64,000 nt of DNA, taken from the NCBI RefSeq assembly GCF_054482595.1, contig NZ_CM137008.1; one strand, 5' to 3'. The notes below the pieces were generated by a model, which ran no database searches, was not told the DNA's origin, and was given only the letters and a program-made list of their open reading frames with translations. Position 1 is the first letter of the stretch; the number at the start of each line of letters is the position of its first letter. The translations under genes were made by a program, and so were the position numbers. Positions 14,223 through 38,607 of the stretch are shown piece after piece.

Positions 14223-14376
14223 AAACGGTTTGCGGGAAAAGGAGAGTTAAGTAGAATTGCAGCGGGTGCTTGAGGCTATCTGTCTCAGGCATGAACACCA
14301 AAAGGCAGATAGAGAAAAGCCCCAGTTAACATTACGCGTCCTGCAAGACGCTTAACATTAATCTGAGGCTCAATCT

Positions 14377-14589
14377 ATGAACGGCAAATCTAGGTTAGCC
14401 TCTTACGTGCCGAAAGGCAAGGAGAAGCAGGCTATGAAGCAGCAAAAGGCGATGTTAATCGCCCTGATCGTCATCTGTTTAACCGTCATTGTGACGGCAC
14501 TGGTAACGAGGAAAGACCTCTGCGAGGTACGAATCCGAACCGGCCAGACGGAGGTCGCTGTCTTCACAGCTTACGAACCTGAGGAGTAA
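14377..14589 (+). CDS. mok: Mok-like leader ORF, in-frame N-terminal extension of hok
   Basis: 70-aa ORF MNGKSRLASYVPKGKEKQA... continuing into the Hok reading frame. Confidence 0.45.
   Translation: MNGKSRLASYVPKGKEKQAMKQQKAMLIALIVICLTVIVTALVTRKDLCEVRIRTGQTEVAVFTAYEPEE
14434..14589 (+). CDS. hok: Hok/Gef-family type I toxin
   Basis: 51 aa MKQQKAMLIALIVICLTVIVTALVTRKDLCEVRIRTGQTEVAVFTAYEPEE; complementary mRNA end elements at 14263-14276 and 14639-14653. Confidence 0.8.
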   Translation: MKQQKAMLIALIVICLTVIVTALVTRKDLCEVRIRTGQTEVAVFTAYEPEE

Positions 14590-14732
14590 GAGACCTGGCG
14601 GGGGAGAAATCCCTCGCCACCTCTGATGTGTCAGGCATCCTCAACGCACCCGCACTTAACCCGCTTCGGCGTTTTTTCCGTTGATTAACTCTAGTTATTA
14701 GAGAACCGAACTTTTATTGATGGGGCAGGGAG

Positions 14733-15125
14733 ATGAAGAAACTTGTTTTAGTCGCAGGTGTAATGATTGCAACAGTAATGTTGGGAGGGTGTGCAGCAAA
14801 GGTCGATCCAGCGTTGAAAGCAGAAGCAATGAAGCCACTAACATGTAATGATGAAAAGCAATGTGACTTTTATTGGAAACGAGCGCAATTCTGGTTGGCT
14901 AATAATTCCTCATGGAAAATTCAAACGGCGACAGACACGCTAATTTCCACTTATAATCCCTCTCCAAATAGTCCATTCCTCGCTTATCAGGTGAGTAAAA
15001 TGCCAAATGAAGATGGATCCTCAAGAATTTTCATCAAGCCTTTTTGCGATAATATGTTTGGCTGTCAACCAAACCCCTATCAGGCAGTTGTTTCCTTTAA
15101 AAACTTCGTTAAAACAGGGCAGTAG
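14733..15125 (+). CDS. Lipoprotein of unknown function
   Basis: 130 aa; signal peptide with lipobox LGGC; four further Cys; followed by terminator-like hairpin. Confidence 0.55.
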   Translation: MKKLVLVAGVMIATVMLGGCAAKVDPALKAEAMKPLTCNDEKQCDFYWKRAQFWLANNSSWKIQTATDTLISTYNPSPNSPFLAYQVSKMPNEDGSSRIFIKPFCDNMFGCQPNPYQAVVSFKNFVKTGQ

Positions 15126-15324
15126 TGTATAGCTTGGACGATAAATTATTAGTGAAAACGCCGTAAACCCTCACCCAATGTGGACTAAGTCTATCAAACA
15201 TGACTGTGATGATTAGTCCGTAGTTGTTGCCTATGAAATCTGGATTGAGTCAGGGTTTAATCCAATAATTATTCTATCGTTCCTTTACAAGTCCGGTATA
15301 TTACTTTCAGTTTGTTTTAGCATA

Positions 15325-15350
15325 CCCGCTTCGGCGGGTTTTGTTTTTTC
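15325..15350 (+). terminator. Rho-independent terminator (CCCGCTTCGGCGGG + T-run)
   Basis: GC stem with UUCG loop followed by ttttgtttttt. Confidence 0.6.
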
Positions 15351-18018: not shown

Positions 18019-18094
18019 GGCCCTTTAGCTCAGTGGTGAGAGCGAGCGACTCATAATCGCCAGGTCGCTGGTTCAAATCCAGCAAGGGCCACCA
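18019..18094 (+). tRNA. tRNA with CAU anticodon (Ile2/Met-like)
   Basis: GGCCCTTTAGCTCAGTGGTGAGAGCGAGCGACTCATAATCGCCAGGTCGCTGGTTCAAATCCAGCAAGGGCCACCA. Confidence 0.8.
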
Positions 18095-18095
18095 A

Positions 18096-18172
18096 CCGCC
18101 ACTAGCTCATCAGGAAAGAGCGTCAACCCTTTAAGTTGAGTGTGCGAGGTTCGAGTCCCCGGTGGCGGTCCA
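18096..18172 (+). tRNA. tRNA, anticodon read as UUU (Lys) but loop atypical; identity provisional
   Basis: Acceptor CCGCCAC/GTGGCGG, D and T arms, encoded CCA; anticodon loop CCTTTAA with C at position 33. Confidence 0.55.
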
Positions 18173-18174
18173 GT

Positions 18175-18250
<76 letters not shown>

Positions 18251-18253
18251 TAT

Positions 18254-18328
<75 letters not shown>

Positions 18329-35130: not shown

Positions 35131-38100
35131 ATGGGTAAAGGCAGCAGTAAGGGGCATACCCCGCGCGAAGCGAAGGACAACCTGAAGTCCACGCAGTTGC
35201 TGAGTGTGATTGATGCCATCAGCGAAGGTCCGGTTGAAGGTCCGGTGGATGGATTAAAAAGCGTGCTGCTGAACAGTACGCCGGTGCTGGACAGCGAGGG
35301 GAATACCAATATCTCCGGCGTCACGGTGGTGTTCCGGGCAGGCGAGCAGGAGCAGACACCGCCGGAGGGATTTGAATCCTCCGGCTCCGAGACGGTGCTG
35401 GGTACGGAAGTGAAATATGACACGCCGATCACCCGGACCATCACGTCTGCAAACATCGACCGTCTGCGTTTTACCTTCGGCGTGCAGGCACTGGTGGAAA
35501 CCACCTCAAAGGGGGACAGGAATCCGTCGGAAGTCCGCCTGCTGGTTCAGATCCAGCGTAATGGTGGCTGGGTGACGGAAAAAGACATCACCATTAAGGG
35601 CAAAACCACCTCGCAGTATCTGGCCTCGGTGGTGGTGGGTAACCTGCCGCCGCGCCCGTTTAATATCCGGATGCGCAGGATGACGCCGGACAGCACCACA
35701 GACCAGCTGCAGAACAAAACGCTCTGGTCGTCATACACCGAAATCATCGATGTGAAACAGTGCTACCCGAACACGGCACTGGTCGGCGTGCAGGTGGATT
35801 CGGAGCAGTTCGGCAGCCAGCAGGTGAGCCGTAATTATCATCTTCGCGGGCGCATTCTGCAGGTGCCGTCGAACTATAACCCGCAGACGCGGCAATACAG
35901 CGGTATCTGGGACGGAACGTTAAAACCGGCATACAGCAACAACATGGCCTGGTGTCTGTGGGATATGCTGACCCACCCGCGCTACGGCATGGGGAAACGT
36001 CTTGGTGCGGCGGATGTGGATAAATGGGCGCTGTATGTCATCGGCCAGTACTGCGACCAGTCAGTGCCGGACGGCTTTGGCGGCACGGAGCCGCGCATCA
36101 CCTGTAATGCGTACCTGACCACACAGCGCAAGGCGTGGGATGTGCTCAGTGATTTCTGCTCGGCGATGCGCTGTATGCCGGTATGGAACGGGCAGACGCT
36201 GACGTTCGTGCAGGACCGACCGTCGGATAAGGTGTGGACCTATAACCGCAGTAATGTGGTGATGCCGGATGATGGCGCGCCGTTCCGCTACAGCTTCAGC
36301 GCCCTGAAGGACCGCCATAATGCCGTTGAGGTGAACTGGATTGACCCGGACAACGGTTGGGAGACAGCGACAGAGCTTGTGGAGGACACACAGGCCATTG
36401 CCCGTTACGGTCGTAACGTCACGAAGATGGATGCCTTTGGCTGTACCAGCCGTGGGCAGGCGCACCGCGCCGGGCTGTGGCTGATTAAAACGGAACTGCT
36501 GGAGACGCAGACCGTGGATTTCAGCGTGGGTGCTGAAGGGCTTCGCCATGTACCGGGCGATGTCATTGAAATCTGCGATGATGACTATGCCGGTATCAGC
36601 ACCGGTGGTCGCGTGCTGGCGGTGAACAGCCAGACCCGGACGCTGACGCTCGACCGTGAAATCACGCTGCCATCCTCCGGTACCACGCTGATAAGCCTGG
36701 TTGACGGAAGTGGTAATCCGGTCAGCGTGGAGGTCCAGTCCGTCACCGACGGCGTGAAGGTGAAAGTGAGCCGGGTTCCTGACGGCGTTGCCGAATACAG
36801 CGTGTGGGGACTGAAGCTGCCGACGCTGCGCCAGCGCCTGTTCCGCTGTGTGAGTATCCGTGAGAATGACGACGGTACGTATGCCATCACCGCCGTGCAG
36901 CATGTACCGGCAAAAGAGGCCATCGTGGATAACGGGGCGCACTTTGACGGCGACCAGAGCGGAACGGTAAACGGTGTCACGCCGCCAGCAGTACAGCACC
37001 TGACCGCAGAAGTCACCACAGACAGCGGGGAATATCAGGTGCTGGCGCGCTGGGACACGCCGAAGGTGGTGAAGGGCGTGAGCTTCCTGCTTCGCCTGAC
37101 CGTGGCAGCGGATGACGGCAGTGAGCGGCTGGTCAGCACGGCCCGGACGACGGAAACCACATACCGCTTCACGCAGCTGGCGCTGGGGAATTACAGGCTG
37201 ACAGTCCGGGCGGTAAATGCGTGGGGACAGCAGGGCGATCCGGCATCGGTATCGTTCCGGATTGCCGCACCGGCAGCACCGTCGCGGATTGAGCTGACGC
37301 CGGGCTATTTTCAGATAACCGCCACGCCGCATCTTGCGGTTTATGATCCGACGGTACAGTTTGAGTTCTGGTTCTCGGAAAAACGGATTGCTGATATCAG
37401 GCAGGTTGAAACCAGCGCGCGTTATCTTGGTACGGCGCTGTACTGGATAGCCGCCAGTATCAATATCAAACCGGGCCATGATTATTATTTTTACGTTCGC
37501 AGTGTGAACACCGTTGGCAAATCGCCATTCGTGGAGGCTGTTGGTCAGCCGAGTGATGATGCGTCCGGCTATCTGGATTTTTTCAAAGGAGAGATAGGGA
37601 AAACCCATCTGGCTCAGGAGCTGTGGACGCAGATTGATAACGGTCAGCTTGCGCCTGACCTGACTGAAATCAGGACGTCCATAACGGATGTCAGCAATGA
37701 AATCACCCAGACCGTTAACAAGAAACTGGAAGACCAGAGTGCAGCGATCCAGCAGATACAGAAGGTTCAGGTTGATACAAATAATAACCTGAACAGCATG
37801 TGGGCAGTGAAGCTGCAGCAGATGCAGGACGGACGCCTTTATATTGCGGGTATCGGTGCCGGTATTGAGAACACCCCCGACGGCATGCAGAGTCAGGTGC
37901 TGCTGGCTGCAGACCGGGTGGCATTTATTAACCCGGCGAATGGTAACACCACTCCTGCACTGGTCACACAGGGCGGACAGACGTTTATTAATGAGGCGCT
38001 GATCAAGTTCCTTATTGCTCCCACGATTACCAGTGGTGGCAATCCTCCGGCATTCTCCCTGACACCTGACGGAAAGCTGACTGCTAAAAATGCGGATATC

Positions 38101-38607
38101 AGTGGCAGTGTGAATGCGAACGCCGGGGCGCTCAACAACGTCACGATTAATGAGAGCTGTACTATTAAGGGGATGCTTGATGCTAACCAGGTGCGTGGTG
38201 ATTTTGTAAAAACGACAGGGCATCGATTTCCGCACCCCGGAGAATACCCACAGGGTTCACTTACCGTTCATATTAAGGACGATCATGCCTTTGACAGGCA
38301 GATTATAATTCAACCAATCATGTACGGTGCACCACCATATTTTAGTAAAAATGATGGCGCTAATATCTACGATACCTGCAGATTAATTGTGCGCAAAAAT
38401 GGCAATGTAATCTATGACAAATCCACTAGTGGTTCGAAAAGGACAACAGTCGTGTACAGCAATATCATTGATATGCCAGTGGGGGACGGAGATGTAATAT
38501 TAACATTTGAAGTTCAGTCGAGCGGCAGTGGAGATCCCAGAACATGGATCAGTGATTTAATGGTCTCGGTAACGAAAAAAGCCGCATCCGGTATCAGTAT
38601 CAGTTGA
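35131..38607 (+). CDS. Host specificity / central tail fibre protein J
   Basis: 1158 aa; position after I; lambda J-like N-terminal and central regions. Confidence 0.85.

Follow-up and report, generated by a model that had tools for sequence, protein, structure and literature searches.

A lambdoid prophage in the stretch of DNA analysed here (64,000 nucleotides, referred to below as the window) carries a small gene at positions 14733-15125, which a sequence-only reading had singled out as coding for a prophage lipoprotein of unknown function. The gene raises the question of whether it is functional at all and, if so, whether its product acts on incoming phages, on the host envelope or on the neighbouring hok toxin locus.

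The gene and its product

The coding sequence lies on the plus strand, starts with an ATG codon and encodes a precursor of 130 amino acids; a G-rich Shine-Dalgarno-like stretch, GGGGCAGGGAG, was read directly from the sequence just before the start codon. The product is identical to RefSeq entry WP_000737636.1, named there 'hypothetical protein', and its mature chain of 111 amino acids has a computed mass of 12.6 kDa and a computed pI of 8.6. The N-terminus, MKKLVLVAGVMIATVMLGGC, comprises a basic n-region (MKK), a hydrophobic core of 14 residues and the lipobox L17-G18-G19-C20, and its letters run MKK, LVLVAGVMIATVM, L-G-G-C20. By direct reading, the signal peptide (residues 1-19) and the lipobox are encoded by positions 14733-14792 (+ strand), and together they present the signal peptide and [LVI][ASTVIG][GAS]C motif that mark bacterial lipoproteins as substrates of Lgt, LspA and Lnt; the lipobox is thus as clear as had been claimed. 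A strict lipobox scan of the six frames of the window returned this gene and one spurious antisense ORF, and nothing else.

In E. coli, the Lol pathway sorts lipoproteins to the outer membrane when the residue at position +2 after the lipobox cysteine is not an aspartate. This residue is an alanine in the window protein and mostly an alanine, serine or threonine in its relatives, from which we infer that the protein would be sorted by Lol to the outer membrane.

The four additional cysteines counted in the earlier reading were found at positions 38, 44, 105 and 111, besides C20, and form two C-x5-C pairs, both encoded on the plus strand. The first pair, C38...C44 (14844-14864), which probably forms a disulfide, is found where strand 36-38 meets helix 41-58 in the structure model described below, and the second, C105-D-N-M-F-G-C111 (15045-15065), corresponds to the family motif C-x-N-x-F-G-C. 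The two pairs are consistent with two disulfides, oxidation by DsbA being plausible and the connectivity of the bonds putative.

A large and conserved lipoprotein family

The start codon, the lipobox and the four additional cysteines recur in each of twelve close homologues from E. coli, Enterobacter, Pantoea and Phytobacter (67-84% identity). The dN/dS ratios against diverged E. coli alleles were 0.10 and 0.17; against Pantoea, Yersinia and metagenomic copies dS was saturated, with dN between 0.12 and 0.5 (0.12-0.27 for Pantoea and Yersinia). The lipoprotein gene is under purifying selection, and since the start and the cysteines are conserved and dN/dS is as low as 0.10-0.17, 14733-15125 is not a chance ORF. 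Strong purifying selection, together with the family-wide conservation described below, excludes a spurious ORF.

An exhaustive profile search of 1.84 billion cluster representatives yielded 1,141 matches at E<=1e-3, of which 532 were at E<=1e-10. Judged from these matches, the family is a large set of phage-borne lipoproteins, with at least 1,100 clusters at 50% identity and no Pfam model. Wherever a source is named it belongs to the Enterobacterales (E. coli, Enterobacter, Pantoea, Phytobacter and Yersinia), and the remainder are metagenomic. Most members are lipoproteins of ~125 amino acids with the motifs C-x5-C-D-x-Y-W-x-R-A-Q-x-W and C-x-N-x-F-G-C. About one tenth of the representatives are longer, 220-240 amino acids, with an added C-terminal DegP-type PDZ domain (P0034, P0101, P0103 and P0133); a tandem duplicate of the domain occurs in P0117 and an N-terminal DUF4124 fusion in P0065.

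In an alignment of 147 representatives, all five cysteines are retained in 133 of the 142 that cover the region. The lipobox cysteine and C38 are each conserved in 99% of the representatives and C44 in 100%, the family consensus of the lipobox being L-[SA]-G-C; W48, W54, T73 and I99 are each at least 90% conserved, and no loop in the family is better conserved than C-x-N-x-F-G-C. The 90% cluster to which the query belongs has 1,137 members and also holds many Hok/Mok sequences of 70 amino acids; a fragment or fusion covering the two adjacent genes has presumably brought them together as an artefact of the clustering.

The homology search proposed in the sequence-only reading led to no named family. 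A full-length match was obtained to phrog_16082 (E 2.6e-84, residues 1-130 against profile positions 1-130 of 130), accompanied by a partial match to phrog_4186 (E 2.2e-8); both are of 'unknown function', so that membership is functionally uninformative. Apart from a chance match to C4 collagen, no Pfam family was matched at E<=1; the NCBIfam scan gave nothing meaningful, the defence-protein models of PADLOC-DB 2.0 gave 0 families at E<=1, and the PDB sequence search gave chance matches alone. A full-text literature search for WP_000737636 returned no paper, and keyword searches on prophage lipoproteins and exclusion returned other families only.

Structure model

An AlphaFold prediction with the 12 close sequences reached a pLDDT of 84 (five models, 51 to 84), and an AF2 prediction with 50 diverse sequences reached 94 (five models, 91-94) with the same topology. 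The modelled elements are helices 3-16 (the signal), 26-32 (short), 41-58 and 115-128, and strands 36-38, 63-66, 70-73, 80-91 and 97-106, and the fold is confidently predicted to be a beta-alpha-beta4-alpha sandwich. Foldseek placed Flpp3, the BamC N-terminal domain and KA1 as its neighbours, at an E of about 0.01, TM scores of 0.38-0.5 and 5-13% identity. In Pfam profiles the lipoprotein matched neither Flpp3 (DUF3568, Francisella) nor the BamC N-terminal domain nor the eukaryotic KA1 domain, and the modelled likeness would be one of fold only, with no demonstrated homology and no hint of mechanism. The four conserved cysteines appear to be characteristic of the lipoprotein family.

A cassette inserted in the hok terminator

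The element that hosts the gene is a Qin/Rac-like lambdoid prophage. The window runs from integrase and exonuclease genes through dicB-side genes and cro/cII-like and replication genes to hok/sok and the lipoprotein gene, and then through a rem-like ORF, DUF968/ydfU, rusA, Q, a tRNA cluster, lysis, head and tail genes, J, lom and fibre genes. The tRNA cluster, located between Q and the holin gene at 18019-18328, contains four genes (CAT, Lys-TTT, Thr-TGT and Gly-TCC), the first of which is called 'Met' by ARAGORN and tRNA-Ile by RefSeq in related prophages. Within the early-right region, the lipoprotein gene falls in the accessory, nin-like part, with hok/sok on one side and rem-like/DUF968/rusA/Q on the other, which bears out its earlier description as an accessory early-region gene, and it is unnamed in all databases searched. 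Its neighbour was likewise correctly recognised: the type I toxin-antitoxin locus hok/sok occupies 14264-14589 (+ strand), with a sok/mok region at 14264-14439 (Rfam sok, 112 bits) and the hokD ORF at 14434-14589.

In the Qin prophage of K-12 and in phage PhiR42_1, the hok mRNA ends at the hairpin AACCCGCTTCGGCGGGTTTTTGTTTTT, with the rem gene immediately behind it. In the window, a 652-bp cassette (14672-15323, + strand), for which the site is empty in both of these elements, is inserted inside this terminator hairpin, and the 13 nucleotides ACCCGCTTCGGCG are found at both junctions (14659-14671 and 15324-15336). Sequence comparison and folding identified the left repeat (+ strand) as a truncated hok terminator hairpin followed by a T run; it is without the descending arm and folds at -7.1 kcal/mol, no better than shuffled sequences (z = -0.6). 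Terminator prediction and folding showed that the right repeat is part of an intact intrinsic terminator at 15324-15349 (+ strand), ACCCGC-TTCG-GCGGGT with a T run, which folds at -13.1 kcal/mol (z = -3.25 against shuffles) and lies 199 nucleotides past the lipoprotein stop codon. The terminator of the lipoprotein gene is the displaced hok terminator.

Between the stop codon and this terminator, the cassette contains an AT-rich 3' untranslated stretch (15126-15323, + strand) that had no match in Rfam, where a small RNA was looked for. A second allele of the cassette is without 68 bp of this stretch (about 15171-15238) and retains the ORF and the terminator; it is present in L044, L049-L051 and L054-L058. 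The GC content is 0.38-0.42 across 14700-15300, as against 0.49-0.57 in the flanks. The cassette thus has the properties of a 'moron' in its presence or absence at one site in otherwise collinear phages and in a base composition unlike that of its flanks. As to a promoter and terminator of its own, the terminator at 15324-15349 is present, the upstream hok terminator is crippled, and no sigma-70-like promoter was predicted between hok and the lipoprotein ORF. The gene had been called a stand-alone gene with its own terminator; an intact terminator is indeed there, but it duplicates that of hok, the gene lies inside a cassette in the hok terminator and has no recognisable promoter of its own, and it is probably not an independent transcription unit. 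With the left terminator crippled and no promoter recognisable, its transcript more likely arises by read-through that starts either at the hok promoter or in the anti-terminated early-right operon.

The same crippled hairpin implies that the hok mRNA probably runs on for ~660 nucleotides through the lipoprotein gene. The hok mRNA is normally activated through processing of its 3' end, and the extension could alter this processing.

Distribution of the cassette

The cassette was found in 254 of 5,426 complete E. coli genomes, always on the chromosome and never on a plasmid, and its product invariably bears the annotation 'hypothetical protein'. The hok 3' end that adjoins it occurs in about 4,500 of the same genomes, and in the E. 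coli prophages sampled the cassette is always at the hok site. Carriers are patchy and include human, poultry and livestock isolates, among them APEC strains. In one cassette-bearing prophage, L077 (NZ_AP042598.1, 7868-24606), terL is split by an element of ~15 kb with its own integrase, a DUF927 primase-like gene, SSB, ProQ/FinO, capsid, portal and terminase genes, which looks like a satellite or a second phage.

IMG/VR contained 55 loci, nearly all of them near-identical E. coli copies at the same hok site; the search with the close-homologue alignment gave mostly identical E. coli copies, and that with the sub-alignment one locus. A tblastn search of 50,697 phage records from GenBank, with the window protein and two distant family members as queries, detected two induced prophages of E. 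coli and no other phage. The near-absence of the family from isolated (mostly virulent) phages fits a function on the lysogen side rather than in the lytic cycle.

Genomic contexts of the relatives

Thirteen independent contexts of the family were sampled, of which 12 are in a prophage or a mobile or integrative element, at sites typical of cargo genes. In the window and the E. coli copies, the gene lies in the nin-like region after hok. Several relatives lie in tail modules: the order is gpK, gpI, lipoprotein and gpJ in L062/L063, and tape measure, gpM, gpL, gpK, Fic, lipoprotein, gpI and gpJ in L065, while in L060 and L061 the lipoprotein gene is followed by a second, unrelated lipoprotein gene, gpI and gpJ, in a cargo island with a YafO-like toxin or an Ant anti-repressor gene; in L073 the gene is inside an RcGTA/phiJL001-like tail module. 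At some of these tail-module sites gpK is a C40/NlpC-P60 peptidase. Others are found in immunity regions, directly after an S24 repressor gene and followed by two further lipoprotein genes (L005), near the repressor in an immunity/early region (L069), or, in Yersinia (L070/L071), after parDE with either sieB and an HTH repressor or a kinase and an S24 repressor nearby. The remaining sites are a prophage in which the terminase block lies on one side of the gene and the early genes on the other (L066), a phage-like contig, beside two other lipoprotein genes (L068), an integrative element with methylases and a PLD-type nuclease (L006, a PDZ fusion), and a chromosomal site where the nearest 7 kb are free of phage genes (L072). 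In L006 there is an overlap between the PDZ-fusion gene and the stop codon of an ORF of 90 amino acids.

Relatives often share their site with other, unrelated lipoprotein genes, in arrays of two or three (L005 1122-2344, L060 5001-5784, L061 4905-5679, L066 5662-6393 and L068 4117-6393). An all-against-all BLAST of the neighbours in five loci revealed no shared neighbour or partner gene besides the recurrence of a phrog_914 lipoprotein, which lies downstream of the relative in two distant loci, L061 and L005, and is absent from the window. The neighbouring toxin-antitoxin genes are of unrelated types, namely hok/sok (window 14264-14589), parDE (L070/L071 6314-6864) and a YafO-like gene (L060 4448-4924, in a Pantoea-type phage).

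Superinfection exclusion as the proposed function

The strongest clue to function is given by the gene positions of the relatives, in tail modules by gpI and gpJ, and in immunity regions by a repressor gene, sieB and toxin-antitoxin cargo. Sites of this kind are those of proven exclusion lipoproteins, and envelope exclusion was ranked first on this ground and on that of the near-absence from isolated phages. We tentatively propose, at less than an even chance and by analogy, that the gene encodes an outer-membrane, periplasm-facing lipoprotein of lysogenic conversion that excludes phages in the manner of Cor, Llp and Rtp45 and belongs to an unrelated family. The sequence-only reading had mentioned exclusion and serum resistance as mere possibilities, and this caution was well placed: the genes near the relatives (gpI/gpJ, repressors, sieB) lend an envelope or exclusion role contextual support and do not amount to proof.

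Bacterial lipoproteins are exported by Sec, processed at the lipobox cysteine by Lgt, LspA and Lnt, and transferred to the outer membrane by Lol. The gene is optional prophage cargo, a 'moron': a low-GC cassette of 652 bp entered a Qin/Rac-like lambdoid prophage by recombination into its hok terminator hairpin, and the lipoprotein gene is probably transcribed by read-through from hok or the early-right operon. According to the proposed mechanism, the product then follows this route. The precursor would be exported by Sec, processed at Cys20 and transferred by Lol to the outer membrane, where the compact 12.6-kDa beta-alpha-beta4-alpha domain would face the periplasm. The target of this domain would be some component of the outer membrane or periplasm, bound at a portion exposed to the periplasm, and incoming phages would be blocked from productive adsorption or DNA delivery.

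Whether the lipoprotein might mask the receptor of its own phage can be judged from the tail-tip protein J. The J protein of the window (35131-38607) is 82-90% identical overall to those of two near-identical prophages (L075, 21719-25198; L076, 22424-25819), and only 53-57% identical over the last 200 amino acids, a pattern that indicates swapping of the receptor-binding end. The lipoprotein that accompanies these divergent J ends is identical, and homologues that are 76-85% identical to it accompany J proteins of 33% identity without the lambda-type C-terminus. The lipoprotein is therefore not tightly coupled to any one receptor-binding domain, and a strict model in which the lipoprotein masks its own phage's receptor is unsupported, one lipoprotein being found with divergent J C-termini. 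Moreover, the adjacency to gpJ in L060 and L061 may be incidental, the site being a general cargo island with a YafO-like toxin, Ant and other lipoproteins. Protection of the lysogen might instead come about by a mechanism other than receptor masking, for example by binding of a conserved periplasmic or outer-membrane component or of the penetrating tail-tip/tape-measure machinery; we consider such a mechanism rather unlikely as it stands, and it would explain both the varied J partners of one protein and the PDZ fusions. Evidence against exclusion in general comes from the lack of homology to any proven exclusion protein, from the L072 site with no phage genes within 7 kb, from the size of the mature protein, about twice that of Cor, Llp or Rtp45, and from the promoter search, which detected none of its own and so leaves expression in the lysogen putative.

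Alternative functions

Among the other readings, it is rather doubtful that the lipoprotein is a host-fitness or virulence factor of the Bor/Iss or TraT type, conferring serum resistance, envelope robustness or colonisation and having no action on phages. Its anatomy, that of a small prophage lipoprotein moron, is Bor-like, its patchy occurrence includes human, poultry, livestock and APEC isolates, its being uncoupled from any particular J receptor-binding domain would suit such a role, and its fold-level neighbour Flpp3 is called a Francisella virulence determinant in the title of the PDB entry. However, no sequence match to the Bor/Iss or TraT families was found in Pfam or PHROG, relatives are widespread in environmental metagenomes and in Pantoea and Phytobacter phages, where serum resistance is irrelevant, and the recurrent positions in tail modules and by repressor or sieB genes fit conflict between phages better. 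Somewhat more doubtful still is a periplasmic inhibitor or immunity-type protein whose C-x5-C loops, especially C-x-N-x-F-G-C, would plug or bind a periplasmic enzyme such as the peptidoglycan hydrolase of an incoming tail tip, a lysozyme, a type VI amidase effector or a PDZ-protease, and would thereby protect from attack or premature lysis. The two strongly conserved short loops bounded by cysteines speak for it, as do the DegP-type PDZ fusions seen in roughly a tenth of the representatives, which point to binding of periplasmic proteins or peptides, the tandem duplicate in P0117, and the gpK C40/NlpC-P60 peptidase and gpI/gpJ genes that adjoin the gene in several phages. This idea rests solely on analogy, though, and no likeness to Ivy, MliC/PliC, PliG or ecotin was seen in Pfam or among the best 50-60 fold matches, nor is a conserved enzyme partner encoded beside the family members in the five loci compared.

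An accessory role in hok/sok, in which the gene would not be independent cargo and might, for instance, modulate killing by Hok or the processing of hok mRNA, is suggested by the insertion inside the hok terminator, which probably lengthens the hok transcript, and by the toxin-antitoxin genes next to other relatives (parDE in Yersinia, YafO-like in L060). We regard it as very improbable and rejected it: the cassette is rare among carriers of hok (just 254 genomes, against about 4,500 with the hok 3' end), most homologues are far from hok, and the neighbouring toxin-antitoxin families are mutually unrelated, in keeping with common cargo islands and not with a common mechanism. That the gene belongs to the lysis module as an o-spanin-like lipoprotein, or is no functional gene, deserves hardly any credence. 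The one point in favour of a spanin role was a weak hit (E 0.21) to a PHROG of Rz-like spanins, and such a role is effectively refuted by the lysis cassette with its own Rz-type gene 4-5 kb downstream in this prophage type (with an annotated Rz1 lipoprotein in L076) and by the product itself, a folded domain of 111 amino acids and not a short proline-rich Rz1. The probability left over by phage exclusion and these alternatives falls to some other function.

Significance and comparison with known lipoproteins

The gene was already listed in databases, where it stands as a hypothetical protein and in a PHROG whose function is unknown. A specialist might find it useful that the family is large (1,141 representatives) and has no Pfam model, that its fold is predicted with high confidence, that PDZ fusions occur and that the cassette is inserted in the hok terminator. 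Since PDZ fusions exist and the lipoprotein is not coupled to any particular tail-tip protein, there is a hint of a target other than the phage's own receptor. If the exclusion role is true, the host range of phages used in therapy may be affected, as ~5% of complete E. coli genomes carry the cassette; if there is no exclusion, the gene is one more conserved prophage cargo gene and mainly a candidate for a new Pfam family.

By the sequence tests run, the product is not a member of the Cor, Llp, Rtp45, Bor/Iss, TraT, DUF3568 or BamC families. Like lambda Bor/Iss and plasmid TraT, it would be a small outer-membrane lipoprotein encoded as optional cargo and expressed from a resident element, but it matches neither in Pfam or PHROG. 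The bor gene is located downstream of the lysis genes, whereas the gene described here is next to hok.

The target of Cor, Llp and Rtp45 is the receptor that the phage uses in the outer membrane, FhuA or LptDE, to which they bind on its periplasmic side (PMC12685063). The window protein resembles Cor (phi80/N15/HK022/T1), Llp (T5) and Rtp45 (Rtp) in being phage-encoded, small and cysteine-containing, with a signal peptide and a lipobox, and in its predicted orientation towards the periplasm, and its relatives likewise lie beside tail-tip genes. It differs from them in size, its mature form of ~12.6 kDa being about twice their ~6-7 kDa, in its beta-alpha-beta4-alpha sandwich fold, and in the position of the window gene, in the nin-like region and not by J. 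The match to the Cor PHROG (phrog_1119) is mainly over the signal peptide (residues 1-44, E 0.007, 17.7 bits), and no membership of the Cor family was found over the mature protein; the solved structures of T5 Llp and Rtp45 show neither sequence nor fold similarity to it, and no PDB sequence was matched at E<=10. The lipoproteins Lpp021 and Lpp010 of mEp-immI temperate coliphages, which were identified by their lipobox and are encoded in the structural gene cluster, exclude phages that depend on OmpA or LamB (PMC11893012); they are probably not detectably related to the window protein, provided that the mEp genomes are among the 50,697 phage records searched. If the family does exclude phages, it would be a widespread and structurally distinct addition to the short list formed by Cor, Llp, Rtp45 and the mEp Lpp proteins.
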